Source: a virus
Lineage: Duplodnaviria; Caudoviricetes
DNA: 64,000 nt
Virus record (IMG/VR): IMGVR_UViG_3300033069_001465
Strand: one strand, 5' to 3'
The notes below the pieces were generated by a model. It ran no database searches. It saw only the letters and a program-made list of their open reading frames with translations, and was not told the origin of the DNA. Positions 1 to 62,076 of this stretch are shown one piece after another (position 1 is the first letter of the stretch; each line of letters begins with the position of its first letter). The translations under genes were made by a program, and so were the position numbers.

Positions 1-254
1 CACCTGAAAATTTTATTGGAATAAAAGATGATAAGAATCCAGAATATTGTGATAATGGACTTCCTATAGACCCAATTAATCATGTTATTTGTGCTAATAA
101 CGCTGTTTTCTTAAAAAGAGAATCCCCAACAATAAAAATGTTGAAGGATGTTTATGATGATAGGAAAAAGAATAAGAAGATAATGATGAATAGAAAGGAA
201 GAATTAAAAGCGGTATTAGATGAAATAAAACAATTAGAAGAAGAATTATTCTAA
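1..254 (+). CDS. gp43: Family B DNA polymerase, C-terminal end of an apparent N-terminal subunit of a split gp43 (5'-truncated by the window edge)
   Basis: Frame starting at nt 3 reads PENFIG...VICANNAVFLKRESPTIKMLKDVYDDRKKNKKIMM...KQLEEELF*. This resembles the PolB segment after motif A (NISPE(T/N)...N...F.K...RK..KK.M, first fingers helix) and stops before motifs B and C. Not in the ORF track. Confidence 0.6.
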   Translation, partial: PENFIGIKDDKNPEYCDNGLPIDPINHVICANNAVFLKRESPTIKMLKDVYDDRKKNKKIMMNRKEELKAVLDEIKQLEEELF

Positions 255-743
255 TATCTTATTTAATTTTAGATTTCTGAAGTCTTGTTTTGAAATTTTT
301 TTACAAGTGATCATATCACATTTACCAAAATCGACTAATTTTTCGTCATGTTGATAGATGTTTACTTCACTACGAATCACTTCCATATATGGATATATAT
401 TTGGGTCATTCTTAATTAATTTAATTATGTCTGACTCTCTATTATCTTTAATTGCTTGAACTATTTCACCATTAATTTTAATACATCCTTTAAAGCTTGA
501 AGTATAAGTAAACCTATCAAGTAGTTTTTCAAAATGCCATTTTTTTACTTGTGATTTATCACAACCAAGGTTTCCAAGACCATTTTCAGGATAACTAACT
601 TTAACAATATTATTAAGCCAAGTAGATTTATAAAAGTAGACCCAATTATCATTTTTTTCATGGATATCACCAATCATAATAATTTTGACAAATTTAGGAC
701 CAAACTGGTCAGAAAGATAATATATATCACCTACTTTTAACAT
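246..743 (-). CDS. Hypothetical protein with C-terminal RxxKLxxIL motif
   Basis: 165-aa ORF ending DFRNLKLNKILE*; TATCTTTG element 4 nt upstream of the ATG. Confidence 0.8.
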   Translation of the reverse strand: MLKVGDIYYLSDQFGPKFVKIIMIGDIHEKNDNWVYFYKSTWLNNIVKVSYPENGLGNLGCDKSQVKKWHFEKLLDRFTYTSSFKGCIKINGEIVQAIKDNRESDIIKLIKNDPNIYPYMEVIRSEVNIYQHDEKLVDFGKCDMITCKKISKQDFRNLKLNKILE

Positions 744-747
744 ATTA

Positions 748-755
748 CAAAGATA
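748..755 (-). promoter_or_regulatory. Bacteroidota-type sigma -7 element (TATCTTTG)
   Basis: TATCTTTG-TAAT-ATG; the same 15-mer occurs at the starts at 3794(-) and 18728(+). Confidence 0.6.
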
Positions 756-759
756 CTAA

Positions 760-995
760 TTAAATCACTAACTCATTAAGTTTTTCATATCTATTGATTT
801 CCAATGTTTCAAAACAATTTTTATGATAATAGACAATTTCTCCATTATCATCTTTTATTTTAATCATTGGATCATCTTTAAATTGATTTATAATATTTAG
901 GCAGTCGTATATTTTACCTATGGTTAGATATAGATATTCTTCTTTTGTTCTTTTGTTCTACCCGGTAATTTTTTACTTATGCAAACTATTTTCAT
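760..995 (-). pseudogene. Small hypothetical gene frameshifted by an 8-bp tandem duplication
   Basis: TTCTTTTG occurs twice at 940-955. Removing one copy gives a 75-aa ORF, MKIVCISKKLPGRTKEEYLYLTIGKIYDCL...FETLEINRYEKLNELVI*, ending in the shared C-terminal motif. Confidence 0.75.
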
Positions 996-1722: not shown

Positions 1723-1724
1723 AT

Positions 1725-1786: not shown

Positions 1787-1916
1787 AAAAAGAAATAAAC
1801 AGCAGTCCAATTCCGCTGAGGTTATTAAAAAGAAACCAACTCGGCTGACCAGAGAAAACACCTACCTATTTTTTTCAAGGCTGTCCAGCTTTTTATCCTA
1901 CCTTGTTGGTTTTTTG

Positions 1917-2281
1917 TGGAGGTGGGGAGCTCCGACTCTCCCGTCTTCTTCAGTTAATAATAACTAATCATTTACAAGCTTAGATAATTTTTCTAAAGTA
2001 TCAAAATAGTTAGTTAATTTATACTCACAAATAACTTAACAAAAACCTATCACTATTTACTGTTGTGATTCAGGTGAATTTTTTTATGAAAGTATCAATT
2101 AAGCTACTTCAAGCTCATTCACAATGAGTAAGTTGTTGCGTAGAGCAAATACTAAATCTTCTTTGCTTGCTACTTCGTTTGTTTTGCCGTTTAAAGCGTT
2201 GATGTCAATTTATTAATCGGATAACTCAGCCGATGCTTGCTTAACTACCATTACGATGCGAATCTATTCCAATTCACCCCC
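1917..2281 (-). ncRNA. ssrA: tmRNA (transfer-messenger RNA)
   Basis: 5' GGGGGTG pairs with 3' CACCTCC-A, with a G3:U wobble (Ala identity). T-stem GGGAG/CTCCC, length 365 nt, internal tag ORF ending in Ala, and its own host-type promoter upstream. CCA is not fully encoded. Confidence 0.9.
2099..2188 (-). other. tmRNA tag reading frame (A)GKTNEVASKEDLVFALRNNLLIVNELEVA*
   Basis: GGC resume codon after TTTAAAC, about 94 nt into the tmRNA; 29 codons then TAA. Confidence 0.7.
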
Positions 2282-2694: not shown

Positions 2695-3171
2695 TTAAAT
2701 TGTTAATAGTAAATTTAACTTATTATTTCTTATTATTCTTTCTCTCTCATCTTTTTCTTCACATATTCTATAGACTGAGCAAGAATCGTTACCAACATTC
2801 CAAATAGCATCAACTTCATATTCATTAATATTAATATTGGACTTTGTTTCATTCCAATATATATCATAAGCATTATAATTATGCAAAAGGGTCCCTCGTC
2901 CTTTTACTAAGGTTAAAAATCCTTCATTTTTAACAAGTAATTTATTACTCATTCTTGCAGCATTTTTTATCTCTCTAATAGAGTCTTCATTAAAGCTCGA
3001 AGAAGATTTATCTAAATTGTAAATTTTATTAAAGGTATTTGAAAATTCATACCCAATATCCCAGGATATTTGATTTGCCCAATTTGTATATGTATTATAC
3101 AAAATGAGATAATCATGATTTAACTGATGATCATATAAGAAAACCGAGTATATTTTATAGATTAAGTCCAT
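2695..3171 (-). CDS. Hypothetical protein with C-terminal RxxKLxxLL motif
   Basis: 158 aa, ends IIRNNKLNLLLTI*. Confidence 0.8.
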   Translation of the reverse strand: MDLIYKIYSVFLYDHQLNHDYLILYNTYTNWANQISWDIGYEFSNTFNKIYNLDKSSSSFNEDSIREIKNAARMSNKLLVKNEGFLTLVKGRGTLLHNYNAYDIYWNETKSNININEYEVDAIWNVGNDSCSVYRICEEKDERERIIRNNKLNLLLTI

Positions 3172-3794
3172 TAGTCAATTTTAATAATCTCATCAGTATA
3201 TTCTCCACCTAAGTGAAATGTCATATATCCAAATCTATGCTGGTCGTCGACCTTAACATAGTATTTTTTGGTCCCAATATCAATTATAAATACACTTTTT
3301 GGTAGTGTATCTGTTTTCTTAAAGTGAACTCTCAGTTTATCCTCTATTAACATCCATAAAATCTTCATAACTCTATATTCTAAATAAGAACACATTTTAT
3401 CAAGTTTATAATATTCTTGACCTAATTCAAATGATTCATCATGTGAAAGAATAAAGTCAAGCTTTTCTTGACGGCCAGCAACTATATCTTTTGAAAATTC
3501 GACTCTGCCCTGTCCGATACTATGTGATCTATATTCAGAGTTATATTTAAAAGTATAATAATAAATATTATTATTATCTTTAGGATGATAATAATAGATA
3601 ACATGTTCATCTTTACTATTTTTTGGAATCTTATCAACTATTTCCTTGATAAATTCAGATCTAGATTTCCATCTTTTATTTGATCTTTCCTTGGCTTTTT
3701 CATAAAGTGCATGAATTTGTTCAATAGTCCACTCTTTAGGCTTTCTATTGAACTTCCTTTCAAATGAATTCGAATAGAGAAAATTATAATTCAT
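3171..3794 (-). CDS. Hypothetical protein with an internal RxxKLxxIL motif
   Basis: ORF 3171..3818; start moved to ATG 3794 because TATCTTTG-TAAT-ATG precedes it. Contains GRQEKLDFILS. Confidence 0.75.
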   Translation of the reverse strand: MNYNFLYSNSFERKFNRKPKEWTIEQIHALYEKAKERSNKRWKSRSEFIKEIVDKIPKNSKDEHVIYYYHPKDNNNIYYYTFKYNSEYRSHSIGQGRVEFSKDIVAGRQEKLDFILSHDESFELGQEYYKLDKMCSYLEYRVMKILWMLIEDKLRVHFKKTDTLPKSVFIIDIGTKKYYVKVDDQHRFGYMTFHLGGEYTDEIIKID

Positions 3795-3795
3795 A

Positions 3796-4017
3796 TTACA
3801 AAGATATGACAATTCCACGAATTATCCTAACAATATCTATGGTACTTACTACCAAACACTTATTAGTTATTTCGTCTATTCTCCTTTTGGGTATATCATA
3901 ATGTGTTTTATGAAACCAACATCTTTTAATATTAAGATTATCTGCCATTTTATGTAAGTTTTCAATGGAGTATGGAATGCAAATTAGATGTCTTTTAGTA
4001 TCACAATAATATTTCAT
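3796..4017 (-). CDS. DUF4031-like small protein
   Basis: HLIC..YS.E.LH.MA..L.IKR.WFH..HYDI pattern. Confidence 0.65.
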   Translation of the reverse strand: MKYYCDTKRHLICIPYSIENLHKMADNLNIKRCWFHKTHYDIPKRRIDEITNKCLVVSTIDIVRIIRGIVISL

Positions 4018-7237: not shown

Positions 7238-7662
7238 TATCTTGTATAAATATTTTTAAAAGAAAAATCCTGAGTATCATATAATATGATATTTTCATGA
7301 CCGAAAACTACAATAGTATCTTTAAAAAAGCTACATCCATGAATCTCATACATACTTAGAACGGATAACAAATCTTTATTTTTGAATACTAACACAAGAG
7401 ATAAATTATAATTGGCATATAATCTTATGTTATTATTTGTCGTTTTAAACCACAATGATCCATGCCTAATATCTTTTTTTGGTGATGATAAATCTATCGG
7501 ATCATCCAGCTGTGTCGTATTCAAGCGAAGACATTCTATTTTACTAGATATATCATTAATTTTTTTATTTCCATGTATAAAATCAATAGATGGATCATGA
7601 GTAATCTTGTTCCATGTTAGTACATCTTCCCCAGATTCATTTATTCTTTTTATATGTTTCAT
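7237..7662 (-). CDS. Hypothetical protein, MKHIKRINE tag
   Basis: 141-aa ORF. Confidence 0.75.
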   Translation of the reverse strand: MKHIKRINESGEDVLTWNKITHDPSIDFIHGNKKINDISSKIECLRLNTTQLDDPIDLSSPKKDIRHGSLWFKTTNNNIRLYANYNLSLVLVFKNKDLLSVLSMYEIHGCSFFKDTIVVFGHENIILYDTQDFSFKNIYTR

Positions 7663-9557
7663 ATATATTTTTTTAAATTTTCTAATAATCTATCAGCATT
7701 ATCAAATGGTTTTGATAAATTTTCTAAATCCAAATTAGATGTATAATAATCTTTTCCTTTATTTATATAGAAGGCCTCTATAAGGTCATTAGGGACATTT
7801 ATACCAGAGTATCTACATTGATTTACGATTGGGATTATCGCCTGTTTAGGTGTGAAATTTTCGTCTTTAAATGACTTTGGGAAGTCTTTACCATCATAAT
7901 CATTCGCACCGTCATCACCATGTACATAAAATCCTGCCACTTTTCCCTCTAAATGGTTTTTTAATAAGTCGTTATATTCACCAGATTGTGCAAATTTACC
8001 GGTTATTTCTGAATTTTTCAAATTTCCTTTTCCCAATACTTTAATAGCGTCATCATAGTGTAATGTTTGACTAGCACAAACTAATCTATCAAATAAAGCT
8101 TTTACTTGACTACTAACAGAGTACCAATGTATTGGACTAAATACTAAAAAAGCATCACACTTTTCAAGCTTTGTATATATGTCTCCGTCATACATAAAGT
8201 CTGGCTTTTTTTCATCATTCTTTTTATAACATGTGCAGTACCAATGACAATTATGTACCTCAATACCTTCACATATAAATTTGTGAGAATCACTAACAGA
8301 TATATCATAGACATCCGATGTTTCTATGCTTTCTATGCTTTCAATTTTTCCGAAGGATGTATGCTTTTTAGAATTTCTATATTTAATATATTCAAATTTG
8401 TAGTCTTTGTTAATTATACCGATTTCTCGCATGAATATATTGGCATTTTTACCGCTTATAATCAACATAGAAGACCTTTTAATAAATTTATTAAATCTAA
8501 AAGTTTCTATATGATCTAGATATGATATTGATGATTTTATTCCAAACTTTGATAATAACATTTGACAATCTCTTAGAGAATCTTTACTAACACTTGTTAA
8601 ATTTATCTCATAATATTTATTTCCATTATTATTTCTTAATATAACAGATCCATCAGTAGCAAACCATCCATTTAAAAATTTAGATATTTGTATTTTAGAA
8701 GAATTCATTATTATATCTGGTATTCTTCTACTGTGAATATTTTTAATCTTTTCTGATTTAATTAAAGTGTTTAGCGAGATGTTTATATTTCTATCTTTAA
8801 AAGATATCCAGTTGGTAGTAGTATTTTTTGATATTGGACCTTGTGAAACTGAAATTTCAAAATTAGATGATATAAAATTAAAAAGTTTTTCATCTCTTAT
8901 ATCATAACACAATCTTAATTTTCCACTCTTATATGATCCATCTCCCCATATCATACCAGCAATATGATAAACATTAATGTTATTATCATCGTTAATAAAA
9001 TTTTCATTAAAATTAAATGGAAGTCTATCACCAATTTTGATATCTTTTACATTTTTCCACTTTTCTTCATATCCAATTAATTTTCTCTTATTCCCATTTT
9101 TATATATTGGATTTATTATTTTTATTGGGTGATTGTCGGTAAGTTTTATTTTTCTACCATCCGAAACTATCACTTCAAATACATCAGAGTCTTTTCCTGA
9201 CATCCAAGCATTTTCAACTACTCCAGTAGATAGTTCATCTCCAATTTGAATATCTTCAATTTTCTTAAATCCATACTTTGTTTCTACTCTTTCACCTTTT
9301 GCAATACAATGATATCCACCAGCAGTTGATACACATCCCTTACATGGTTGTATGATTGATTTTTTAGACTGATTTACTGATAAGTCAATCACATCAAAAT
9401 TATAAATGTCAGAATATTTATCAACGACATACTCAACGATTGTATGAGTTTTACTTTCCATATTTGGACAAGTGTCTTTATCCCTTGGAGATCCTTGAAA
9501 GATAATTACCTTAGGCTTACTTTTATTAATATCTTCAAATAGTTTAATATATTTCAT
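7659..9557 (-). CDS. Flavodoxin-like iron-sulfur flavoprotein (FMN-reductase fold) interrupted by an intein
   Basis: GSPR; PCKGCVSTAGGYH|CHWYCTC after splicing; D.F.VFSPIHWY..SSQVKALFDRL; GKVAGF.VHGD. Confidence 0.85.
   Translation of the reverse strand: MKYIKLFEDINKSKPKVIIFQGSPRDKDTCPNMESKTHTIVEYVVDKYSDIYNFDVIDLSVNQSKKSIIQPCKGCVSTAGGYHCIAKGERVETKYGFKKIEDIQIGDELSTGVVENAWMSGKDSDVFEVIVSDGRKIKLTDNHPIKIINPIYKNGNKRKLIGYEEKWKNVKDIKIGDRLPFNFNENFINDDNNINVYHIAGMIWGDGSYKSGKLRLCYDIRDEKLFNFISSNFEISVSQGPISKNTTTNWISFKDRNINISLNTLIKSEKIKNIHSRRIPDIIMNSSKIQISKFLNGWFATDGSVILRNNNGNKYYEINLTSVSKDSLRDCQMLLSKFGIKSSISYLDHIETFRFNKFIKRSSMLIISGKNANIFMREIGIINKDYKFEYIKYRNSKKHTSFGKIESIESIETSDVYDISVSDSHKFICEGIEVHNCHWYCTCYKKNDEKKPDFMYDGDIYTKLEKCDAFLVFSPIHWYSVSSQVKALFDRLVCASQTLHYDDAIKVLGKGNLKNSEITGKFAQSGEYNDLLKNHLEGKVAGFYVHGDDGANDYDGKDFPKSFKDENFTPKQAIIPIVNQCRYSGINVPNDLIEAFYINKGKDYYTSNLDLENLSKPFDNADRLLENLKKYI
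8250..9308 (-). mobile_element. 353-aa intein with LAGLIDADG homing endonuclease
   Basis: Starts CIAKGERV; block B LTDNHP; LAGLIDADG-like IAGMIWGDG and FLNGWFATDG; ends VYDISV...HKFICEGIEVHN followed by Cys+1. Confidence 0.92.
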
Positions 9558-14524: not shown

Positions 14525-14809
14525 TTAGCTATTTATACTATCAATTTGCATATCACGGTACAAAGATAATACACGAAAGTATTCTTTATTATTTGATGGT
14601 GATACTCTTCTCAATACTGATAAATATCCTTGTAAAATATCAATTAGATTTGAATCAAAAAACTTTCCTTGTTTACTTGTGTCTGGATCCTCTTGTTTAC
14701 TCGTTGCATAATAAACCACCGACTTTAAATATGTGTCATAGTAATAATGAATTACTCCACCACTATATGATTCTTTATATAGAAAGATATTCCACATCAA
14801 TACTTCCAA
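14525..14809 (-). CDS. Hypothetical protein with C-terminal RDxxIxxI motif
   Basis: Ends LYRDMQIDSINS*; start uncertain. Confidence 0.65.
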   Translation of the reverse strand: MEVLMWNIFLYKESYSGGVIHYYYDTYLKSVVYYATSKQEDPDTSKQGKFFDSNLIDILQGYLSVLRRVSPSNNKEYFRVLSLYRDMQIDSINS

Positions 14810-14816: not shown

Positions 14817-15503
14817 TTATTTTTTAGAATCTTCAGCTGCTTCTTCTAAATCAGCTTTTTTAGCCGCATCAGCTAATACTTGAGATAAATCACACTCTTG
14901 TGCAGAAACACCAGCACTTCTATAAGAAGTTAATGTAGCACTGAATACTTTACTCATTTTCTTAGTTCCTTTGGAATCTGCTGCAAAGTTATAAGAAGCT
15001 CCGATACCTCTGGATGAACCTTCAGCAAATGAATCTTGGTTAGCACCAATATACATAAACTTCCAATTGTAATTCTTTTCTTGATGTTCAATAAGGGTTT
15101 TAACACTTTGTTTTGTATGCTCTTTTGAAGCATTTTCATGTCCATCAGTAATAGATACGATAAGAACTTTTTCTGGCCTTTCGGATTCATCTTTTGCCGC
15201 TAATCTAGCACCAGTTTCATTGATTAACCTAGCCAAGGAATCATTTAAAGGAGTAGATCCTCTTGGGGTATAATTAGATTCGTTTAATAACTTAACCTCA
15301 TTAAGTGGGGAAAAATCATTAATTGTTTCAAATTGTAACCCCATATTCTCATCAAATTGAACTAAAGTAACAGTTAAATCACCTGGTACATTTTTTTGAT
15401 CCTCAATTAGTTGGTTAAAACCACCAATAACATCAGATTTGATACTATTCATTGAACCAGATCTGTCAATTAAAATAGCAACGTGTGTGTAATTGTTTTT
15501 CAT
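14817..15503 (-). CDS. von Willebrand factor A domain protein
   Basis: MIDAS motif DRSGSM, TPLND and ITDGHENAS. Confidence 0.9.
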   Translation of the reverse strand: MKNNYTHVAILIDRSGSMNSIKSDVIGGFNQLIEDQKNVPGDLTVTLVQFDENMGLQFETINDFSPLNEVKLLNESNYTPRGSTPLNDSLARLINETGARLAAKDESERPEKVLIVSITDGHENASKEHTKQSVKTLIEHQEKNYNWKFMYIGANQDSFAEGSSRGIGASYNFAADSKGTKKMSKVFSATLTSYRSAGVSAQECDLSQVLADAAKKADLEEAAEDSKK

Positions 15504-17354: not shown

Positions 17355-18521
17355 ATGAAGATACGTAAGAAGTTTTTACAATTGACAAGAATGACATATC
17401 CCTATGGAACCGAAAAGTTTCTGGAATCTTTCCTGCCTGATGGCGTTCAAATGGATAAGTTCGGAAACTACTACCTTTCTGTTGGTGATAATTACACAAC
17501 AATGTTTACCTGTCACTTAGATACATCTTGTCGTAAGATGGAAAATGTTACTCACAAATTTTGTGGGAGTTATATAATGACAGACGGAACAACAATTTTG
17601 GGTGCTGATGATAAGGCGGGTATGATTGTTGTTCTATATATGATAGAAAAGAAAATTCCTGGTCTTTACTACTTCTTTATTGGTGAGGAAACTGGATGTA
17701 TTGGATCCTCTGACTTATCTGAGGAACTTGAAAAAGACGGTGATGTCCCAGTAGAATTAAAAAGCATTCAAAAAGTAATTTCGTTTGATAGACGAGGTAC
17801 AAATTCTGTTATTACAGAACAATTTTATGGAGTTTGCTGTTCAGATGAATTTGCTAAAGAACTTTGTTCACAATTAAACACAAGTGGTCTTTTACAAATG
17901 GTACCGGATGATACAGGAGTCTTAACTGATTCAGCACAATTTATGGGTATTGTTCCTGAATGTACAAACATTTCTGTTGGATATTATGATGAACATACAC
18001 ATAAGGAAAGACAGGATATAGAACACCTTTATAAGCTTTGTAAATCTATTGAAAAAGTAAATTGGGAAACATTGCCGGTGGCTAGAGATCCTATTAAATA
18101 TTACAGTGAGTACTATGGTGGATGGGGATGGGGATGGGATGGTGAAGATGATTGGGAATCACCAAGAGATAAGAGTGTTTCCAACGCAACTCCTGTTATT
18201 AGTCGAGATACACATTTAAGTGAGTATGCTGATTATTCTGCTGGATTGTACTCATTCGTTAAGAGGGATGGTATAAGAACAAAAGCCTATATTTCACAAA
18301 CATGGATTAATCATGAAAAACTATTAATTATGGAAATGTTCCGAAAACAAGGACGTGCCATTGATGAATTAAGATGGGATGGTACATCATGTTGGGTTAG
18401 GGATGTGGGTGAAACTATTAACGCATATGTTGGTAATAGAAGTGACTTAGTTGAATTTATTGAAAACTTTTCTACAATTCCGGTAGCTCATTTGAAATAT
18501 GACTTAGTGTTCGTATCTTAA
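17355..18521 (+). CDS. M28/M20-family zinc peptidase (paralog of 5229..6839)
   Basis: FTCHLDT, LGADDKAG, GEETG, SFDRR and NISVGYYDEHT. Confidence 0.85.
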   Translation: MKIRKKFLQLTRMTYPYGTEKFLESFLPDGVQMDKFGNYYLSVGDNYTTMFTCHLDTSCRKMENVTHKFCGSYIMTDGTTILGADDKAGMIVVLYMIEKKIPGLYYFFIGEETGCIGSSDLSEELEKDGDVPVELKSIQKVISFDRRGTNSVITEQFYGVCCSDEFAKELCSQLNTSGLLQMVPDDTGVLTDSAQFMGIVPECTNISVGYYDEHTHKERQDIEHLYKLCKSIEKVNWETLPVARDPIKYYSEYYGGWGWGWDGEDDWESPRDKSVSNATPVISRDTHLSEYADYSAGLYSFVKRDGIRTKAYISQTWINHEKLLIMEMFRKQGRAIDELRWDGTSCWVRDVGETINAYVGNRSDLVEFIENFSTIPVAHLKYDLVFVS

Positions 18522-19283: not shown

Positions 19284-19733
19284 ATGAATTTATTTAAAAT
19301 AATTTGGTATAAAATTTACTACCATCTCAGTAGATATCTGTTTCACAGTGTGGTAAAATCAAATAAAACCGGAAAATACAAGGTCGCGGGACCTTGGAAA
19401 GTACCAAGAATGAGTCCCACGTCCTTATCAAATACAGATGAGGAAATTTATCAATTATTATCTAAATATGCTAACTTATTTATTACAATCGAAAATTTTA
19501 AATTATCCTACCGTGGTAATGACGATTTTAATGATTTTATAAATCTACCGAATAAAGTATCACTTATCTCATTTGGTGATATAAAAGATCTTAAAGGATA
19601 TGTTATATATCTTGAATGTGAGATAAAAGATAAATATCATACAAAATTTATTTTTCATACCGAAAATGTACCTTACGATGATCCAAAATTGGTATCATTA
19701 ATAAGGGACAAAAGATTAAGCGAATTAGTATGA
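19284..19733 (+). CDS. Hypothetical protein with C-terminal RDxRLxxL motif
   Basis: Ends LIRDKRLSELV*. Confidence 0.75.
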   Translation: MNLFKIIWYKIYYHLSRYLFHSVVKSNKTGKYKVAGPWKVPRMSPTSLSNTDEEIYQLLSKYANLFITIENFKLSYRGNDDFNDFINLPNKVSLISFGDIKDLKGYVIYLECEIKDKYHTKFIFHTENVPYDDPKLVSLIRDKRLSELV

Positions 19734-20035
19734 TGTACAATCAAGTAGAACTAAAATTATCTTTTTCTGATAGATACAGAAGCTATGAAGATGGTGAGGA
19801 AGCCGAAGTCGGAATAGAGTTTGAAAGTGTTAGTAAAATGAGAAATTTTATAAATAACGGACAAAGAGTATTCAAAGTTTTAATGAATGATACATATGGA
19901 CGAACCTATCGATCAATGTATACAGTTTTCAAAGTGATAAAAATACACAAAATAAAACACAAGAAAATTGAAGCTACTATTCAGAAAATGAACCTAAGAG
20001 ATTATAACTTAGATACGATACTAGAGGCAATCTAA
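19730..20035 (+). CDS. Hypothetical protein with C-terminal RDxxLxxIL motif
   Basis: Ends LRDYNLDTILEAI*. Confidence 0.75.
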   Translation: MMYNQVELKLSFSDRYRSYEDGEEAEVGIEFESVSKMRNFINNGQRVFKVLMNDTYGRTYRSMYTVFKVIKIHKIKHKKIEATIQKMNLRDYNLDTILEAI

Positions 20036-20049: not shown

Positions 20050-21036
20050 TTATAAAAAAATCCTATTGCCTTTATAGTCACATATTATAAATTCAAAGTA
20101 CATACCCATTCTATGACAGGCTTCCATTTTTTTCTTGTTTTTTTCTATTTTAGACTGATATGTCCATATTGATTTAGCCTCATAAATCTTATTTATGGAT
20201 TTTATATAAAAATCTGGGTAGTATCTTCTTCTGATATTTTTATCATCCATGTAATAGATTACCCCAGTGACCTTATTTATATCCTTGACTGTGTACAAAA
20301 TATCATCTTCTTTATATTTCAAGAGTAAAATATCCAAGGCTATATTTTCATATCCTTGAATTTTGATTATTTTACCTGATGGTAATGTATAATTTTTAAA
20401 TTTTACTCTCGACCTTAAATTATTTAGAAAGTTTTCTTCTTTTTGCATTGGGTGTCCTCCATATTTTTCAAAATTTGCCTTCCTTACTCTATCTTTTATT
20501 ATATCAGATTGTATTGCGTGTTCCACTCCATATTTTTTAAGGTTAGTCTTTTTAACTTTCTGTTTAACTTCTTCAACCTTCATTGGACTATCTACACTAT
20601 ATTTATCAATAATTGATTTTCTTAATTTATTTTTTGTTGCTTCTGTTTTCATAGGATGTGTTCCATATTTTAATAAAAATGTTTTATTTGAACTTTCATT
20701 CCTTTTTTTATTTACAAATATACACCTATGTGATCCACATGAGGATTGATATCCTCTATTATTATCTAAAAATCTACACAGTCCTCCACACTGACAAATT
20801 ACATCATGATCAATATCATTTAATATTCTAAAAACAGATTCTTTTATTGAATTATTATATAAATAAATACTTTTAACTTTCTGTGAAACACTTTTATTTT
20901 TAATTAAAAAAAATGAAAATGATCTATTATTTTTAATTTCTTCTCTTATCTTCAAAAGTGTAATTTTTAATTCTACTTTATTTTTACAAAGTTCTATCTC
21001 ATTTACATATTGAATAAATGCACTTCTACTTTTCAT
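20050..21036 (-). CDS. Putative homing endonuclease (zinc ribbon, KYG repeats, PD-(D/E)xK domain)
   Basis: CQCG...C....C, four KYG/KYS repeats and YYPDFYI...YEAKS. Confidence 0.75.
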   Translation of the reverse strand: MKSRSAFIQYVNEIELCKNKVELKITLLKIREEIKNNRSFSFFLIKNKSVSQKVKSIYLYNNSIKESVFRILNDIDHDVICQCGGLCRFLDNNRGYQSSCGSHRCIFVNKKRNESSNKTFLLKYGTHPMKTEATKNKLRKSIIDKYSVDSPMKVEEVKQKVKKTNLKKYGVEHAIQSDIIKDRVRKANFEKYGGHPMQKEENFLNNLRSRVKFKNYTLPSGKIIKIQGYENIALDILLLKYKEDDILYTVKDINKVTGVIYYMDDKNIRRRYYPDFYIKSINKIYEAKSIWTYQSKIEKNKKKMEACHRMGMYFEFIICDYKGNRIFL

Positions 21037-21890: not shown

Positions 21891-22154
21891 ATGATGCAAA
21901 CACTAACTGAGGATCAATCAAGGGAATACAACATATCTTTATCAAAGGATATAGAAGATTGGTGGTCTGATCTTTCAATATCTGAAAAGAAAAGTATATA
22001 TGATTATCATAAACCCATGTTTTTACAAATTAAATGTTCACATGAATTTAATAAAATCAATTTCTATTCAGAAAAAATAGAACATTGTCATAAATGTAAT
22101 TATAATAGATCTATCTCTGATGCTAGGAACGAAAAAATAAATGATTTAATATGA
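21891..22154 (+). CDS. Small zinc-finger-like protein with C-terminal RNEKINDLI motif
   Basis: CSH...CHKC; probable start at ATG 21891. Confidence 0.7.
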   Translation: MMQTLTEDQSREYNISLSKDIEDWWSDLSISEKKSIYDYHKPMFLQIKCSHEFNKINFYSEKIEHCHKCNYNRSISDARNEKINDLI

Positions 22155-38855: not shown

Positions 38856-38882
38856 TTTATATATAAATCTATGATTGGAGAA
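38856..38882 (+). repeat. 27-bp direct repeat, right copy (promoter plus first four codons of the gp15-like gene)
   Basis: Identical to 36324-36350. Confidence 0.95.
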
Positions 38883-41468: not shown

Positions 41469-42953
41469 ATGGATTATCACATTTTACTTAAGTCTTTAAA
41501 TTTTGCCAATAGAAGGGAAAATATAATATCAAAAAAATATCCAGACCTTTATAATCAAATAATAAATTATACTAAGGATTTAGTTCCATTTAAGCAAAAG
41601 GTGTATAACTATTTGCATAATATTGATTCCATACCAACTTGTAAATCTTGCAAAAATAAGGTTGGATTTTTCAATAACACATATTCAATTTACTGTTCTA
41701 ATAAGTGTAAAAATTCGGATCAAGAATTTATTGATAAAACTTCTATATTAAGAGAAAGAAGTATGATGTCTAAATATGGTGTTAAATATACATTTGATAT
41801 GTTATCTATCAAGAATAAAATAAAAAACACATTAAATGAAAAATATAATGTAGATAATATATCAAAATTACCATACATAAAGGATAAAATATCAAATACA
41901 AAAAAGCAAAAAACTATTATTGAGTACAATAATAAATCTATAAATCTAATAAGCATAGATGAAAATAGAGTAATGAGTATACTGTGTGATAAGTGTAATA
42001 ATGTATATGAAATAAATTATACAACATATTTACTTAGAATAAAAAATGAACATGATATTTGTATAAATTGTAATCAGTTAAATAATCTTAAAAGTTCACA
42101 TTTGGAAAAAAACATTTCTAAAATTATATCGGATGCTGGTATAGATTTCATATCTAATTATAAAATTGGAAATAGAGAACTTGATATTTACCTACCTGAT
42201 AAAAAAATCGGATTTGAATTTAATGGATTATATTGGCACTCTGAAGTATTTAAGGAAAAAAACTATCATCTAAATAAAACATTATTATTTGCAAAGAATG
42301 GCATAAACATATTTCATATATGGGAAGATGATTGGATATACAAACAGGATATTGTGAAATCTATGATATTAAATAAAATTGGTAAAACTAATAACAGAAT
42401 ATTTGCTAGAAAATGTGATATTAGAGAGGTAGTCGATAATAAAATAGTTAGAGAGTTTCTAACAAAAAATCACATTCAGGGGTTCATTGGATCAAAGTAT
42501 AAAATCGGATTATTTTTCAAGGAGGAGTTGGTTAGTCTAATGACATTTGGGAATCTTAGGAAATCATTAGGGCAAAAAAGTAAAGATGGATCATATGAAT
42601 TACTAAGATTTTGTAATAAATTAAATACAAGTGTTGTTGGAGGGTCTTCCAAACTATTTAAATATTTTTTAAATAACTATCCATCAAAAGAAATTATAAG
42701 CTATTCTGATTTGAGTAGATCTAATGGTGATATGTACTTAAAGTTGGGATTTAAATTATCACACACGTCTCGTCCTAATTACTATTATGTTGTTAATGGA
42801 ATTAGAAAGCATAGATTTAACTATAGAAAAGATAGACTAATTAAAGATGGATTTGACCCAAATAAAACAGAAATTCAAATAATGTCAGAACAAGGATACT
42901 ATAAAATTTTTGACTGCGGAATGCAAAAATGGATATGGAAAAGTGTAAAGTAG
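41469..42953 (+). CDS. Putative homing endonuclease (zinc ribbon, KYGV repeats, PD-(D/E)xK domain, Hef-like C-terminus)
   Basis: CKSC..YCSNKC, ELDIYLPD..IGFEFNGLYWHS, FARKC, YELLRFC and IFDCG..KW. Confidence 0.8.
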   Translation: MDYHILLKSLNFANRRENIISKKYPDLYNQIINYTKDLVPFKQKVYNYLHNIDSIPTCKSCKNKVGFFNNTYSIYCSNKCKNSDQEFIDKTSILRERSMMSKYGVKYTFDMLSIKNKIKNTLNEKYNVDNISKLPYIKDKISNTKKQKTIIEYNNKSINLISIDENRVMSILCDKCNNVYEINYTTYLLRIKNEHDICINCNQLNNLKSSHLEKNISKIISDAGIDFISNYKIGNRELDIYLPDKKIGFEFNGLYWHSEVFKEKNYHLNKTLLFAKNGINIFHIWEDDWIYKQDIVKSMILNKIGKTNNRIFARKCDIREVVDNKIVREFLTKNHIQGFIGSKYKIGLFFKEELVSLMTFGNLRKSLGQKSKDGSYELLRFCNKLNTSVVGGSSKLFKYFLNNYPSKEIISYSDLSRSNGDMYLKLGFKLSHTSRPNYYYVVNGIRKHRFNYRKDRLIKDGFDPNKTEIQIMSEQGYYKIFDCGMQKWIWKSVK

Positions 42954-48507: not shown

Positions 48508-50664
48508 TTATAGTTTATAATTTCCACCAAAAAATTCATTACCACTGTTATAAACTCGATTTTGATATTGAGACATCATCCTTCTTTGCCTATTGACGTT
48601 TATAATAGATGAATAATCAGCGGTTTCTTTATATTCAACATCTTTTAATATTGCATTAAAATAGCTAAGTGACTCAGCATCTAAAATAGATGGCGCATAA
48701 TCTTCAACCATTTGTTTATATTCATACTTATTGAATATACTAGAAGTATCAACTAATGTCATTACTGTATCATCATTTCCAATATCTGCGGCATATCTAA
48801 CATTACCAGCTGGTGTAATATGTTTAACAAAGGTTGTTATTTCTCTAACATTATCTTCATTGTTGATAACAAATCTTTTCTTATCCATAGCATCTTGATA
48901 ATCTTTGACCAACATATTTTTATTGTCACCAACTTTTAGTCCTATTTTTTCCTCTTCTGCGTCTGCTTTATGTTTATATCTAAAAAATATAGAAGATCCA
49001 TAGTTATTATTCCCCTCAAAGACATGTGGTAAATGTGCTAAAAATTCATTTCCGTAACTATTTATTTCTAATACAACTTTAAAATTATCGTAATGAAAGT
49101 ATTCAAACGCAATCATATAGAATAGTTCAGCTAGTTGTTTTACTGATACAAGATTTGACCTAAACATTCCTATTTGAACTAAGCAAAAGAAATCACTCAT
49201 TGTACTATAAGTATGCTTTTGCATCTCTATTATTTCTCGTGCCTTAGGAGCAATTTTAAAAATATTAATAACTGAATAGTCCTGACCCAGTCCTTCTGAT
49301 ATATCAACCGTCATTATACCTTTAATCTGCTTTCTTTGAATTGGCATAAACAAATTATCATCATCTACCCATTTTAAATCAGAATAAGAGAATCTTAATT
49401 TTCTATCAAATTCATATATCTCTTCAAATTTATAATTTTTCTTACCAGTTAATAAATGTTCAATAGTACTCTCAGTTAATAACGACCTACTTGAATTAAT
49501 AAATCTCAATCCATATTCTTGATTAAATGCATCCTCACCACCAATATCTTTGATAGCTTCTTCTTTCCATGTTGTTACTTCTGCTAGCATTTGAATTGGT
49601 ATTTGTAATCCTTTTGCATCTATAAACTGAAATGATTTTGCCATAGCATCTGTACAAACCTCATTATTAAAAACAGATATAATGTCTTTTTGTAAATCGG
49701 GATTGAATTTAACATCTATTTTAGTTAGGTCACCAAACTCACTTACAACTTGATTATAGATATCATCTTTTGTTATACCAAGTTCAGCCATTTTAAATTG
49801 ATTCAGTCTATAATACGTTACAAATCTACCAGGTACTTGATACCAATAAACACGCATCGCTCTATAGTTATTCTTCTGTGGATCCCCACCAGGTCTTTCT
49901 GCATCTGTTAATAGCTTATAGAATAGGTTCATACCATTCGGGGTTGATGTAATAATGATCTTAGAGTTTTCAATGGCAGACACCGTTGGAAAAGCTGCGG
50001 TATAGTATGCCTCAATAATATTTGGTGGAATGTGTGCAAATTCGTCCATATATAAGAAGTCAATTGTAAAACCAATCGCTGGTGTCTTTGTTCTAGCAGA
50101 GCTTTTAATTCTACATCCATTATCAAATATAACAGATCTTTGGTTCCAGTTTTTGATTCCTACTTTTAAAAAGAATGGTAGTTGAACATAAATAGATTTT
50201 ATCTTATCAATAATTTCTATTGCTGTATTAGCAATATTCGCAACAATCATGATATTTTTATCATTATTAAATGTAATAAAGTGTAGCATTGTGATTGCGG
50301 CCGATATGGTCTTACCTATCTGTCTTGAACCACAAAGAATACTAAATCTACCACCATAGTATAAATCTAATATATCTCTTTGGTAATCCCTTAGTGTAAT
50401 ATTACCAACACTACCGTCTTCAGTTTTAACTCGACAATATTTTTCGGCAAAATAATGTATATCAACCTTACATCTGATATACTCTTGAAACTCAGCATCT
50501 GTTATCGCAAATGTAATGCCGGCTCTTCTAACACCGACTTCATTTTTAAACCATGGGTTTTGAAACCTTTTGATTACAAATCCATCATTTATTTTATTAG
50601 TTATTTCTTCAACTACTTTACTATTGAAGATAAATTTTTTCTCTTGAACCTCTTTAACTGCCAT
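48508..50664 (-). CDS. gp17: Terminase large subunit (T4 gp17-like)
   Basis: LRDYQ, Walker A SRQIGKT, Walker B YMDEFAH, STPNG, F.QEY, VDISEGLGQDYS and DDTVM. Confidence 0.95.
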   Translation of the reverse strand: MAVKEVQEKKFIFNSKVVEEITNKINDGFVIKRFQNPWFKNEVGVRRAGITFAITDAEFQEYIRCKVDIHYFAEKYCRVKTEDGSVGNITLRDYQRDILDLYYGGRFSILCGSRQIGKTISAAITMLHFITFNNDKNIMIVANIANTAIEIIDKIKSIYVQLPFFLKVGIKNWNQRSVIFDNGCRIKSSARTKTPAIGFTIDFLYMDEFAHIPPNIIEAYYTAAFPTVSAIENSKIIITSTPNGMNLFYKLLTDAERPGGDPQKNNYRAMRVYWYQVPGRFVTYYRLNQFKMAELGITKDDIYNQVVSEFGDLTKIDVKFNPDLQKDIISVFNNEVCTDAMAKSFQFIDAKGLQIPIQMLAEVTTWKEEAIKDIGGEDAFNQEYGLRFINSSRSLLTESTIEHLLTGKKNYKFEEIYEFDRKLRFSYSDLKWVDDDNLFMPIQRKQIKGIMTVDISEGLGQDYSVINIFKIAPKAREIIEMQKHTYSTMSDFFCLVQIGMFRSNLVSVKQLAELFYMIAFEYFHYDNFKVVLEINSYGNEFLAHLPHVFEGNNNYGSSIFFRYKHKADAEEEKIGLKVGDNKNMLVKDYQDAMDKKRFVINNEDNVREITTFVKHITPAGNVRYAADIGNDDTVMTLVDTSSIFNKYEYKQMVEDYAPSILDAESLSYFNAILKDVEYKETADYSSIINVNRQRRMMSQYQNRVYNSGNEFFGGNYKL

Positions 50665-58020: not shown

Positions 58021-61000
58021 ATGGCAATTCAAATTGGTAAATACAAAAGACCAGGTATCTTCATAGAAGAATACGATAATTCAATAATTACTAGCCCGAC
58101 TGTTGAGGGAATTAATACGTTGGTTGTTGGGTTTTCCAAGAAGGGACCAATTAATACCCCTGTTCGTTTAACAAATCTAAACGACTTAGATAGCATATTC
58201 GGATCTATTGACAGAGGATTAGAAAGAAAGGGATCTTTCTTTCACAGAACTATCGCTAAGATGTTAGAATCTACTCCGGTATACGCCCTTAATCTATTAG
58301 CAACTGATGACACACTTGACCAAATGGAATATAGATCATTATCAGCAGCTTCTGATAAAGCAAATGATGAATTATTAACTGATTCTTATAGAAAGTTCTT
58401 TAATACAACTGGTTTCTGGAAAAGAGATACTGATGCTTTTATTAACCTAGTAGGTACTACAAGTAACACTATTCTTAATTTAACTAACCTTTCAGATAGA
58501 CCTGTGAGTGTATTTATGTTTAAGACTAAGTTAACAGGGTTTGATAGAACCTTAATTGAATGGTATGGTACAGCAGAGAAAGTTCCACCATATTTAAACA
58601 CAAATGATTACGCATCTGAATACATGGTTGATGCTATTGTTGTAGGTGGTGATTGGTCTAATTATTCAGTTCTATCTGTTGATCCTAGATGGTCAAGATA
58701 CTTTGATTCAACTGGTCTTAAGAAATCAATGATAAGTGATTTTGCCAATGATAGAAACGTTAATTTGTTAGCATATTATGAAGGACTATCTTTAATTCCA
58801 TATTTTAGAGATGGTAATGGTAAAAATATATTTATTGAAAGTATTATAAACAGAGACACTGATAAAACTGGTGTATTCTGTGCATTTGATATTGACTCAT
58901 TTGAAACTGATTATCCAAAAGGTATGGTTGATTTAATTGGTAATAATTTAGTTGGCAGTGAAAACGCAACTATTGATTTCTTATCATATTATGATACTAT
59001 CAATGAAGTTACCGCATTTGGTGATGTTCCTCTTGATAAAACTGGTAATGTATGGGCTATTATTGGTACCTTCTCTTCTTTTAGAACATCAGGCACACCA
59101 GGTAGAACTGCATACTTCTCAGAGGGATATATTGACAGTGTTGAAACTGTTTTAGGAACATATTCAGCATCAAGTGTTAGTGTGAATGTAACATTCACTA
59201 CTGCCACTCCTTACGCTATAATTGGTGGAGCGGCTGTAGATGTTGATACAACGACAACAACATTTACTGTTGCAACATCAAGCTTTACTACTTTAGGAGC
59301 GACATATACATCAACATTGGTATTAAAGAATACTGGTATTATCGAATTGGTTAATGGATCAACTACAAATGTTAAACCATTAGTTGAAGCAACTGACCTT
59401 GTTCTTGGATATGCAACAACATACATATCTGCTGGTGGTGTATTTGGTACACCAACATGGACTGATGTTTGTACAAAATCTACTGGATTTAATGAATTAG
59501 CTCTTACTACTGATTATACTGTAGCAACAGCAAGTAACAGTGTAGTGATTACTTTCACTGATACCGCAGCTACACCAAGTTTAAGAAATTATGAGCAATA
59601 TAGAAGAATTAAATATTTTAACAATCTTGTTAGCTTATTAGATTCAGTAGCTAAAGCTAAAATGAGTATGATTGTTAATGGTAGTACATTAGAAAAACTA
59701 TCTTTAGCTGATGTGACAGTTTCAAATATTGTAACATCAACTACTTCTAATAAGTCATTTACACTATCTGGGCTTTCAACATACACAGATATTGTAACAG
59801 ATGGTCTTTTAGTGTTCTATACTGTAGATGATGAGTTTGTTGTTGGTACTGATACAATTGTTACAAAATCAACTGTAGCAACTACCGCAGAAGGTGTTGC
59901 TGGTAAATATTCTGACTTTTATTTAGATTACACAAATGGTACTATTAATAGTGGTGATTATTTCTACACTAATTTTATTACTGAAGGTGATGAATTTGAT
60001 GTTACTTTTGCAACATCTGGAGCAACTGCCTATGTTACCTTACAAACAACAACTGGAACTTCAACAAGTGGTTGGCCGTCAGTTGGTATGATTCAGTCAG
60101 GTGACTTACTAAGATTTCCAGATTCAGTATTAAACAAAGGAACTATAACCATAGCAACTGACTATACAAATCATGGTAATCCAGTTACAGGTGAATATAA
60201 ATTTGTAGTAAATGGGACTGTTGTTGATGAAACTTTACTTAGTGTAACAAGTGTTTACGCATTAAATTTAAAACACTATACTAAAATATATATTGACAGT
60301 TCTGATAATCTTCAGGTTGAATTTGTTGATGCTGCCGGTGATGCTCTTCCTTTAGATGCAGCAGATACACAACCTATTGACGAATTAGCAAATGCTAAAT
60401 TTGGATTTGATTTATTCTCTGATAAGCTAAATTACAAACAAACATTGGAACTAGTTTATCCAACTGGATATACTACATCTCCTAATAAAGTTCTCGTATC
60501 AGCATCAAGATACACCGAAGTAAAAGTTGGTGATTTCTTAGAAGCTTATGTAGATAATACATTATTAGAAACTGGTGAAGTTCCAAGAAAATTAACCAGA
60601 ATTTTAAGCAAGAAGTTCTACGCAGCTGATACAACTTTAGTTGAAATTTCCTGCGATGCTAGAATTGCGGTTTCAAATTATGGAACAGCACTTAGTCCAG
60701 ATTGGCAGACAACAAGATACACAACTATCGAAGATTATGTAACTACTTATAAGGCTATTACATTAGCTGGATTTAAAGTAAGACAAGCTTCAATTCCTGA
60801 TGGAACTGAAGATAGACAAACAGCTATTTTAAACCTTGTTGCTAAAGGAACACCAATGTTCAACGCTTTAGTAAACAAAGAAGCAATTGATTTTAGATAT
60901 GTTGTTGACTCATTTGGATTAGGATTAATTGAGGGGTCTAAACAACAATTAGTAGATATATGTGGTGATAGATTAGACTGTCTTGGATTCTTAAATATGC

Positions 61001-61794
61001 CTTCAATGAAACAGTTTAAGGCTTCATCTGACCCATCATTCACAAATAGTGATGGTGTATTAGACACATCATTTATCGCTAATGGTGGTGATCCTGAAGC
61101 AAATCCGTCATTCTACTACTCATTCGGTACTGGTAGAGGTACAACTTGTGTTGGATACTTCTTACCTTACTTGGTAATAAATGATAATAGCAGACCACTT
61201 GATTTACCACCAGCAATGTTCGCAGCAACTACATATTTGAGAAAACATAACTCAAATATAACATCAATAGTTCCTTGGACAATTGCAGCGGGTGTTAACA
61301 ATGGTAGAGTTACTGGATTCGATAATGTTGAAATGGATTTTACATTAACAGATATTGAGAATCTTAACTTAGCTCAAATGAACCCAATCGTTTACAAGAG
61401 AAATAGAGGATTTGTAATCGAAACTGAAAACACAGCTCAAACTCTTTATAAATCAGCTTTATCTTACATACACGTTAGAGAAGTGTTGATTGAACTTGAA
61501 AGAGAACTTTCTAGAATGTTACTAGATTTCCAATGGAGATTTAATACACCTGAAACTAGAGCTGAAATTAAGTTGAGAGCAGACGTTATTTGTGAAACAT
61601 ACGTTAGTAAGAATGGCTTATATAACTACTTCAACAAATGTGATGATGAAAATAACACAAATGACATCATAGATAATCAAATCGGTGTTCTTGACACATA
61701 CGTAGAACCAATTAAAGGTATGGGTATAATTGTTAATAACATTACAATCCTTAGAACAGGTGCTATTCAAAGTGGTGGTTTTATAATCCCATAA
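58021..61794 (+). CDS. gp18: Contractile tail sheath protein (T4 gp18-like) with a large central insertion
   Basis: RPGIFIEE.D.S, GFSKKGP.NTP, PW.IAAG...G, NPIV, VRE.LI, FN..ETR, CD.ENNT..IID and YVEP.K. Confidence 0.92.
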   Translation: MAIQIGKYKRPGIFIEEYDNSIITSPTVEGINTLVVGFSKKGPINTPVRLTNLNDLDSIFGSIDRGLERKGSFFHRTIAKMLESTPVYALNLLATDDTLDQMEYRSLSAASDKANDELLTDSYRKFFNTTGFWKRDTDAFINLVGTTSNTILNLTNLSDRPVSVFMFKTKLTGFDRTLIEWYGTAEKVPPYLNTNDYASEYMVDAIVVGGDWSNYSVLSVDPRWSRYFDSTGLKKSMISDFANDRNVNLLAYYEGLSLIPYFRDGNGKNIFIESIINRDTDKTGVFCAFDIDSFETDYPKGMVDLIGNNLVGSENATIDFLSYYDTINEVTAFGDVPLDKTGNVWAIIGTFSSFRTSGTPGRTAYFSEGYIDSVETVLGTYSASSVSVNVTFTTATPYAIIGGAAVDVDTTTTTFTVATSSFTTLGATYTSTLVLKNTGIIELVNGSTTNVKPLVEATDLVLGYATTYISAGGVFGTPTWTDVCTKSTGFNELALTTDYTVATASNSVVITFTDTAATPSLRNYEQYRRIKYFNNLVSLLDSVAKAKMSMIVNGSTLEKLSLADVTVSNIVTSTTSNKSFTLSGLSTYTDIVTDGLLVFYTVDDEFVVGTDTIVTKSTVATTAEGVAGKYSDFYLDYTNGTINSGDYFYTNFITEGDEFDVTFATSGATAYVTLQTTTGTSTSGWPSVGMIQSGDLLRFPDSVLNKGTITIATDYTNHGNPVTGEYKFVVNGTVVDETLLSVTSVYALNLKHYTKIYIDSSDNLQVEFVDAAGDALPLDAADTQPIDELANAKFGFDLFSDKLNYKQTLELVYPTGYTTSPNKVLVSASRYTEVKVGDFLEAYVDNTLLETGEVPRKLTRILSKKFYAADTTLVEISCDARIAVSNYGTALSPDWQTTRYTTIEDYVTTYKAITLAGFKVRQASIPDGTEDRQTAILNLVAKGTPMFNALVNKEAIDFRYVVDSFGLGLIEGSKQQLVDICGDRLDCLGFLNMPSMKQFKASSDPSFTNSDGVLDTSFIANGGDPEANPSFYYSFGTGRGTTCVGYFLPYLVINDNSRPLDLPPAMFAATTYLRKHNSNITSIVPWTIAAGVNNGRVTGFDNVEMDFTLTDIENLNLAQMNPIVYKRNRGFVIETENTAQTLYKSALSYIHVREVLIELERELSRMLLDFQWRFNTPETRAEIKLRADVICETYVSKNGLYNYFNKCDDENNTNDIIDNQIGVLDTYVEPIKGMGIIVNNITILRTGAIQSGGFIIP

Positions 61795-61808
61795 TAATTG
61801 AATAAAAT

Positions 61809-61843
61809 AAAAAAAGTCGAACAGAAATGTTCGACTTTTTTTT
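61809..61843 (+). terminator. Intrinsic terminator after the sheath gene
   Basis: A7-GTCGAACA-GAAA-TGTTCGAC-T8. Confidence 0.9.
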
Positions 61844-61887
61844 AAACATTTGTCCAAAAAAGTTATATAAAAATAAAATAAAAAATT

Positions 61888-62076
61888 ATGCCAACAATTA
61901 GTAGTGGAAACATGAGCGCGGAAGTATCTGAAAAAGTTGATCCAGTATGGGAAAATAAACAATATTTATTAAAGGTTATAATGGATCAATGTCAAATAAC
62001 AACAGAAGATTTAAATAATCAATCAATTGTTAGATCTAAAGTTAGAGAATCCAAAATTGAAAAAATTATTTCTTAA
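61888..62076 (+). CDS. Small protein with C-terminal RESKIEKII motif
   Basis: 62 aa; AAACAT-N16-TATAAA upstream. Confidence 0.75.
   Translation: MPTISSGNMSAEVSEKVDPVWENKQYLLKVIMDQCQITTEDLNNQSIVRSKVRESKIEKIIS

Follow-up and report, generated by a model that had tools for sequence, protein, structure and literature searches.

A C-terminal helical tag on unrelated accessory proteins in a clade of huge T4-related phages

Results

Tagged C-termini in a 64,000-nucleotide stretch of phage DNA

The stretch of viral DNA analyzed here (IMG/VR record IMGVR_UViG_3300033069_001465; 64,000 nucleotides, hereafter the window) comes from an uncultured T4-related huge phage lineage and holds a T4-type structural core. 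Its G+C content is 28%, and under the standard code we called 77 genes that cover 92% of it and encode 19,554 amino acids (aa) in total. The subject of this study is a short peptide motif, here called the tag, that recurs at the C-termini of small proteins encoded in the window. A sequence-only reading had listed eight such C-terminal peptides, and all eight are present at the positions it gave. The closest public genomes are the uncultured megaphages LR745206 (635 kilobases (kb); capsid protein 70% identical) and LR756502 (642 kb; 69%), which originate from a Japanese subsurface site and a French freshwater lake, respectively (PMC9723777). Next come LR756504 (636 kb, capsid 53%) and then LR756501 (735 kb), and at a greater distance follow the Lak phages, Tenacibaculum phage PTm1 and Sphingomonas phage PAU.

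The pattern by which the tag had been described, R-[DNEY]-x-[KRQN]-[LI]-[DNES]-x-[LI], matches the 77 window genes eight times, each time one to four residues before the stop and never internally. By chance, as estimated from 2,000 per-protein shuffles, a mean of 0.35 matches is expected anywhere and 0.008 at C-termini. Because the pattern was defined after the fact, we relied on tests that are independent of it. A ten-column weight matrix trained on LR756502 only recovers six of the eight window tags, zero to three residues before the stop, compared with five weak internal matches in about 18,000 positions. This 31-fold C-terminal enrichment (Fisher p=9e-7) bears out the expectation of the sequence-only reading that a profile would find the motif concentrated at C-termini.

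On the minus strand, open reading frame (ORF) 246-743 (165 aa) carries its tag at 252..281 (-), with one residue between the ten scored columns and the stop (21.6 bits with the LR756502 matrix), and ORF 2695-3171 (158 aa) at 2704..2733 (-) (20.3 bits). The mini-ORF 760-867 (35 aa; tag at 766..795 (-)) has a tyrosine at position 1, counting the arginine as position 0; like the tag of ORF 14525-14809 (94 aa; 14531..14560 (-)), its tag matches the pattern and scores below 9 bits with the matrix. On the plus strand, ORF 19284-19733 (149 aa; tag at 19701..19730 (+), 15.9 bits) ends in a stop that overlaps the following start (ATGA), which opens ORF 19730-20035 (101 aa; tag at 19994..20023 (+)), whose tag is invariant in four metagenomic relatives. 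The stop of ORF 21891-22154 (87 aa; tag at 22122..22151 (+), 14.1 bits) overlaps the start of the thymidylate synthase gene; here the tag stood as first read, and the ATG at 21891 is a likelier start than the TTG at 21858 chosen before. The last carrier, ORF 61888-62076 (62 aa; tag at 62041..62070 (+), 17.5 bits), lies downstream of the tail-sheath gene (58021-61794).

An internal copy had also been reported, in ORF 3171-3818. It is present at 3447..3476 (-), where the tag-like helix separates an N-terminal part of about 115 aa from a C-terminal part of about 90 aa, and the glutamine at its position 1 places it outside the strict pattern. This copy is kept in the LR756502 orthologue 65611-66285 (39% identity overall). 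The sole off-gene match of a six-frame scan is an antisense tag-like peptide (17 bits) at 40333-40362 (-), ten codons before a stop and inside the conserved gene 39691-40974, and is probably due to chance. Immediately upstream of the tagged ORF 14525-14809, on the same strand, lies a vWA-domain gene (14817-15503 (-)); neither of the two has a homologue in LR756502.

The tag has the features of a helix that lies in a groove

Aligned, the tags read hydrophobic-R-[D/N/E]-x-K-[L/I]-[N/D/E/S]-x-[I/L]-[L/G], followed by zero to eight, commonly one or two, further residues; L-G-I is a frequent ending. Conservation upstream of the arginine is gone within five residues: a capping box, T-hydrophobic-x-E-[Y/H], often precedes it, and upstream of the box the proteins have nothing in common. 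Within the ten columns, positions 0, 1, 3, 4, 5, 7 and 8 are constrained and positions 2, 6 and 9 are free. On a helix the free positions fall on one exposed stripe (i, i+4, i+7), and the conserved residues occupy the remaining surface. Such a distribution, with one free stripe and the rest conserved, is what marks a helix seated in a groove.

For ORF 19730-20035, modeled together with four metagenomic relatives, AlphaFold2 predicted a small alpha/beta body followed by a helix over residues 89-100. The helix is modeled with lower confidence than the body, indicating that it is not firmly packed. The helical periodicity and the predicted terminal helix are both in line with the amphipathic helix that the sequence-only reading had proposed.

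The constraint acts on the protein and not on the DNA, because synonymous codons vary and the DNA beyond the stops is unalike. All synonymous codons occur: the arginine is encoded by AGA, AGG or CGT and the leucines by TTA, CTA or CTT, with a modest shift toward codons that end in A or T compared with the remainder of the genome. The DNA 3' of the tag stops showed no similarity among carriers.

The tag marks about one sixth of the genes in one clade of phages

Among the 929 genes that we called in LR756502 there are 98 matches to the strict pattern, and 84 of these lie within eight residues of a protein's end. A matrix refined on this genome finds 168 of the 929 genes (18%) tagged at the C-terminus and 47 internal copies, a 77-fold difference in density. 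Matrix counts for LR745206 are 142-151 of 884 genes and, with a shifted version of the tag described below, 129-136 of 884 for LR756504. An unbiased scan of the last 14 residues of all proteins for gapped triplets ranked the tag above all other patterns, at p=4e-75 for LR756502 and p=2e-145 for LR756504. The same scan in T4, PTm1, PAU, Lak-A1 and the first 160 kb of LR756501 gave best values of only 1e-6 to 2e-8, which is noise because thousands of patterns were scanned.

We found no tag in T4, PTm1, PAU, Lak-A1 (read with code 11 or 15) or the 160 kb of LR756501, and one or two matrix matches among 517 genes in 400 kb of LR756500. Several of these tag-less control genomes are as A+T-rich as the tagged ones. 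Viral contigs of the same clade from many metagenomes are tagged as well. The tag is thus real, its C-terminal excess is extreme, and it is confined to one clade of phages of about 640 kb. Internal matrix matches are two to five times denser in the tag-bearing genomes than in the controls; one of them, a perfect tag-like peptide, lies at residues 246-253 of an XPD/DinG-type helicase (LR756502 256301-257968). Full-text literature searches returned no published description of the tag, and the word 'motif' does not occur in the text of the paper that discusses these genomes (PMC9723777).

Carriers are unrelated and turn over quickly, and their tags persist

The bodies of the carriers had been called unrelated, and indeed BLAST sorts 92 tagged proteins, stripped of their tags, into 87 clusters. 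Carrier length runs from 35 to 622 aa; the median is 114 aa in LR756502 and 95 aa in LR756504. For the eight window carriers no Pfam or PHROG family reached significance, three showing weak PHROG matches (E>=0.017), and sequence searches of Pfam, PHROG, ESM Atlas and the PDB with carriers or candidate partners yielded nothing useful. In the relatives, larger carriers include a CCA-adding enzyme, whose tag is a weak variant, as well as a riboflavin kinase and a BtpA-like protein. Since some carriers are ordinary enzymes, general handling fits better than the docking of inhibitors. Hydrophobic segments are not enriched in the carriers, and on this ground membrane anchoring was rejected.

Seven of the eight window carriers lack a homologue in LR756502, where flanking core genes are 45-80% identical; the exception, ORF 19730-20035, has a detectable orthologue there that is tagged too. 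Across LR756502, 31% of carriers have an orthologue in LR745206, compared with 49% of the other genes (p=2e-5). Where orthologues exist, the tag is kept in 50 of 57 pairs, and in these 50 identity is 58% over the tag and 38% over the body (p=4e-9), a result favored by the requirement that both members of a pair pass the matrix. Carriers therefore turn over faster than other genes, and their orthologues retain the tag while the bodies diverge.

Carriers lack the box that precedes structural genes and rarely bear the N-terminal leader

The genes for capsid, portal, protease and terminase have a AATATATA box 12-35 nucleotides ahead of the start codon; in the window they encode the gp23-like capsid protein (23837-25522), the gp20-like portal (28403-30148 (-)), the prohead protease (25586-27772 (-)) and the large terminase (48508-50664 (-)). 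By analogy with T4's TATAAATA, the box is likely a late promoter. Window examples include those upstream of 4039 and 10812 and of the protease, portal and terminase genes; the box occurs genome-wide in LR756502, also before genes with an N-terminal tag.

That second label, an N-terminal leader of the MKYLK type that resembles the capsid targeting sequence (CTS) of T4, is carried by about 10% of genes in the tag-bearing phages. Of 166 C-terminally tagged genes in LR756502 none follows the AATATATA box, which stands before 151 of 665 other genes and before 45 of 96 N-tagged ones (p=7e-17); nor does it lie directly upstream of any of the eight window carriers. The two labels had been said never to co-occur. 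Indeed, no window carrier has the leader, and in LR756502 only two genes bear both labels where 17.7 are expected (p=5e-7); both of these have poor N-terminal tags.

The carriers are packed in tight operons (median gap -1 nucleotide), and 32% of them stop with TGA, compared with 10.5% of other genes. They concentrate at both genome ends, reading inward; in LR756502 the first 20 kb and the last 42 kb together contain 61 of 166. Because they lack the late box and cluster in tight operons at the genome ends, the carriers would be early or middle genes. Of the claim that they are early effectors, the absence from late units is upheld (0 of 166 with the box), and 'early' is itself deduced from a promoter-like motif and gene arrangement.

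The tag has shifted in step in a sister lineage

In LR756504 the tag reads R-K-x-[K/R/I]-I-[E/D/N]-[N/D/E]-L-[L/I], with lysine at position 1 in 84 of 136 copies. That position is aspartate, asparagine or glutamate in about 90% of LR756502 copies, 85% of LR745206 copies and six of the eight window copies scored. The genes with the lysine-type tag are entirely different ones; among 166 pairs of LR756502 and LR756504 orthologues, no pair includes a tagged LR756502 protein. More than 100 unlinked genes have thus changed together, as expected if all copies must fit one partner or each other.

Discussion

The tag as a proposed address label

We put at roughly 55% the probability that the tag is an address label: a short linear docking motif on unrelated, non-late accessory proteins, all read by one partner that co-evolves with it. 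In this scheme, a portable amphipathic alpha-helix of 10-14 residues would be attached to the C-termini of many unrelated, mostly small, fast-turnover proteins, and a common partner would read the helix and co-evolve with it. We infer that the tag has a binding partner, instead of acting inside the protein that bears it, and that this partner is a single one. The outcome, as far as we can guess, would be a common handling of the early accessory proteome. Its members might be passed to an unfoldase or protease and cleared at a set time, or be brought to one site in the infected cell, and the data favor neither. The idea of one shared partner had led to predictions that hold, in that three lineages bear the tag on different gene sets and the shift is in step, and it has gained no candidate from the partner search described below. 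The sequence-only reading had further suggested a docking helix or degron directed to host RNA polymerase, a protease or adaptor, or a phage hub. What stands is the portable docking-type helix; for the degron and for each of the named partners our analysis produced no evidence.

Several points weigh against the address label. The sequences would look the same if the helix stabilised its own protein only or if the tags bound to each other. The structural model is of modest confidence (mean predicted local distance difference test (pLDDT) score 67, from five sequences), and the percentages given above are approximate since the genes were called with a simple codon-score caller. The timing class of the carriers rests on a promoter-like motif rather than on expression, and two or three window carriers lie downstream of genes with the AATATATA box and could be co-transcribed with them. 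Finally, a phyletic filter for the partner, which kept 52 LR756502 proteins that occur in all three tag-bearing genomes and are absent from six tag-less sets, singled out none of them; all positive genomes belong to one clade, so every clade-specific gene correlates with the tag equally well.

The set of 52 includes PrkA, DUF444/YeaH, RNase R, an EF-G-like GTPase, a peptidase T-like family and a small phosphatase, and 38 of its members lack a late box. An earlier filter over two genomes had kept 74 proteins, SpoVR and a 377-aa AAA protein also among them. The peptidase T/M28-like family is clade-specific, with one member in the window (17355-18521 (+)) and three LR756502 paralogues at 243765, 300298 and 412580. 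PrkA was tried as the partner and rejected: 12 of 15 same-clade PrkA loci carry tags, yet 64 other PrkA-bearing viral loci (60-70% identity) have neither this tag nor, after clustering, any other shared one. PrkA is 67-84% identical across the clade and is more conserved than the capsid protein. The PrkA/DUF444/SpoVR set is conserved in the clade and not specific to the tag elsewhere. Borne by the phage, PrkA, DUF444 (YeaH) and SpoVR correspond to the bacterial yeaG-yeaH-ycgB trio (LR756502 273831-277142 and 519947-521446), and PrkA is common in viral contigs of IMG/VR, with 132 confirmed matches.

Other candidates were considered as well. Small proteins with conserved C-terminal motifs are associated elsewhere with vWA and MoxR-type AAA+ genes; here a search for MoxR (PF07726) gave no match above the cut-off and one weak match, on a clade-specific AAA protein of 369-377 aa, and a vWA gene adjoins one window carrier. 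Encapsulin (PF04454) and microcompartment shell proteins (PF00936) are absent from LR756502, LR756504 and LR745206. The ClpP proteases and Clp ATPase, the sliding clamp and a phage transfer-messenger RNA (tmRNA) as the source of the motif were also rejected, for reasons that bear on the rival explanations below.

Does the tag deliver proteins to a degradation machine?

The most specific rival, itself a special case of the address label, is a degron, in which the helix would be the handle by which an AAA+ unfoldase, protease or adaptor of phage or host clears early accessory proteins on schedule. Bacterial degrons are usually C-terminal peptides, as established for ssrA and ClpXP; the carriers are non-late and include ordinary enzymes, and the tag-bearing phages encode two ClpP proteins, a third ClpP-like protein, a 707-aa Clp/Hsp100-type ATPase and the AAA+ protein PrkA. 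We nevertheless consider a degron unlikely. ClpP and the ATPase also occur in the tag-less Lak-A1, and the ATPase in the tag-less LR756501; PrkA stands at the 64 other viral loci without a tag of any kind; and the Clp and PrkA genes have no late box, and hence show no sign of delayed expression. The zero to eight variable residues that trail the motif speak against a reading of the carboxylate end as in ssrA, and the tag frames of the phage tmRNAs are unlike the motif.

The tmRNA-like gene of the window lies at 1914-2281 (-). It scores 30 bits with Rfam RF00023 (cut-off 47; E=2.7e-10 over the full model), was not detected by ARAGORN, and has a possible tag frame of 29 codons that ends in ...E-L-E-V-A. 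The LR756504 tmRNA exceeds the RF00023 cut-off (65 bits), and its frame ends in ...M-A-V-A-A. Relatives of the window also encode RNase R and an EF-G-like GTPase.

Less probable readings

Less probable still is mutual association, in which tag would pair with tag, in short helical bundles or in condensates, and the accessory proteome would thus be gathered into one assembly. It too would force all copies to drift together, as the lineages with aspartate-type and lysine-type tags have done, and it needs no receptor gene, which fits the failed partner search. However, 10-14 residues are short for a stable bundle, and the near-invariant arginine and the polar asparagine or aspartate on the conserved face resemble recognition in a groove rather than a zipper.

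The carriers are small (medians of 95-114 aa) and fast-evolving, and a capping box often precedes the helix; these features would suit a helix that acts as an intramolecular cap, stabilising small marginal folds or shielding C-termini from host proteases. Such a role seems to us quite improbable: seven near-fixed positions are hard to explain by packing against unrelated folds, there is no intramolecular reason why position 1 should turn from an acidic or amide residue into lysine across a whole genome, and the helix is modeled with less confidence than the body it would stabilise.

Could the tag be a clamp-binding tail? Its [D/E/N]-x-x-[L/I]-x-x-[I/L]-[L/G] core would then mimic the PCNA-interacting-protein box (PIP-box) or the T4-type polymerase tail and dock on a gp45-like clamp of the phage. 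The polar position 1 and the hydrophobic positions 4, 7 and 8 are spaced as in the PIP-box consensus, clamp-binding motifs are typically terminal, and the phage is T4-related and encodes a gp44-type clamp loader (34027-35001). The phage DNA polymerase, however, ends in a different conserved tail, hydrophobic and acidic, in LR756502 and LR745206; no recognisable replication protein is tagged at its end, the only helicase match being internal; 15-18% of the proteome is far above any known clamp clientele; and neither Pfam gp45 model found a clamp gene in these phages. This makes the clamp highly improbable as a partner.

Common descent from one diverged paralogue family, or a nucleic-acid signal (a recombination site, terminator or coupling signal) read as protein, would suit carriers that stand in tandem arrays, often with ATGA overlaps, and is largely refuted by bodies that differ in length (35-622 aa) and family (87 clusters from 92 carriers) and share little upstream of the arginine, by the use of all synonymous codons with only a modest A/T shift, by unconserved flanking DNA, and by a motif-to-stop distance that varies from 0 to 8 codons.

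Two labels and their known counterparts

Together with the N-terminal leader, the address label may form part of a two-label system. The mutual exclusion that the sequence-only reading took as a sign of two-address sorting fits the counts given above, and the sorting itself is putative. We tentatively suggest, as a proposal of somewhat under even odds, that a cleavable N-terminal leader sends late proteins to the capsid and that the C-terminal helix sends the early accessory proteome to a dedicated phage-encoded partner, with label and partner co-evolving too fast for sister lineages to remain compatible. If other clades of huge phages had comparable labels, this would become a general principle by which very large phages manage orphan proteins by the hundred.

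The tag resembles the T4 CTS, cargo peptides and C-terminal degrons in use, yet fails testable defining features of each. The T4 CTS, found on the internal proteins IPI-III and on Alt, is N-terminal, marks late genes and is removed by the prohead protease. Like the tag, it is short and portable and is borne by unrelated proteins of a T4-type phage, which it directs to one destination. Unlike the CTS, which is N-terminal and ends in a prohead-protease site, the tag lies zero to eight residues from the C-terminus, and whereas CTS carriers are late and packaged, none of 166 tag carriers follows the AATATATA box and the tag almost excludes the N-terminal leader.

Encapsulin cargo-loading peptides and microcompartment encapsulation peptides each consist of a short helix or peptide at a terminus, often the C-terminus; otherwise unrelated cargo enzymes share nothing else and dock through it on one shell protein. 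The tag is likewise a short terminal helix and the only feature that unrelated proteins share. It differs from these peptides in sequence, the three tag-bearing genomes have no shell genes, and in place of a few enzymes there are hundreds of carriers, mostly orphan proteins.

In ssrA-type degradation, through SspB and ClpX, one C-terminal peptide suffices to deliver any protein to one AAA+ machine. The setting is alike, with a C-terminal tag in phages that encode ClpP, a Clp ATPase and their own tmRNA; unlike in ssrA, the end residues of the tag are not fixed and the Clp genes are not specific to tag-bearing phages. With the PIP-box and the T4/RB69 polymerase tail the tag shares its terminal position and one polar and three hydrophobic residues at the same spacing, but its hydrophobic residues are aliphatic rather than aromatic, its carriers are not replication proteins, and the tail of the phage's own polymerase differs.

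A looser analogy, from eukaryotic pathogens, is with the Plasmodium export element (PEXEL) and the oomycete RxLR motif, which are N-terminal, export-linked and host-targeting. There, as here, one short motif marks a large, fast-evolving repertoire of unrelated small accessory proteins. By contrast, the tag is C-terminal, and nothing points to export, hydrophobic segments not being enriched.

The genes of huge phages are mostly small orphans that offer no experimental handle, and in this clade about one sixth of the proteome bears one ten-residue label. The tag is a sequence rule that would assign hundreds of unknown genes to one class: not late, not packaged and handled in common. Used as bait, the peptide offers a single experimental way to a partner that must matter for infection, and sister lineages whose labels changed in step provide a compatibility experiment set up by nature. 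Should the partner be a protease, a scaffold or a compartment, it would represent a new organising principle for giant phage infections, and the tag could become a portable targeting tool.

Additional features of the window

Besides thymidylate synthase and the other products already named, the window encodes a gp15-like protein (38871-39617), homing endonucleases and an Fpg/Nei glycosylase. A flavodoxin/FMN-reductase-like enzyme (7659-9557 (-), 632 aa) that carries the N-terminal leader is interrupted by an intein in which there is a LAGLIDADG endonuclease domain. Variable islands that contain tagged ORFs and the thymidylate synthase gene are flanked by two DUF7487 proteins, one of them with a restriction-endonuclease-like domain, and a GIY-YIG/NUMOD3 homing endonuclease (20050-21036 (-), 41469-42953 (+) and 22974-23771 (-)).

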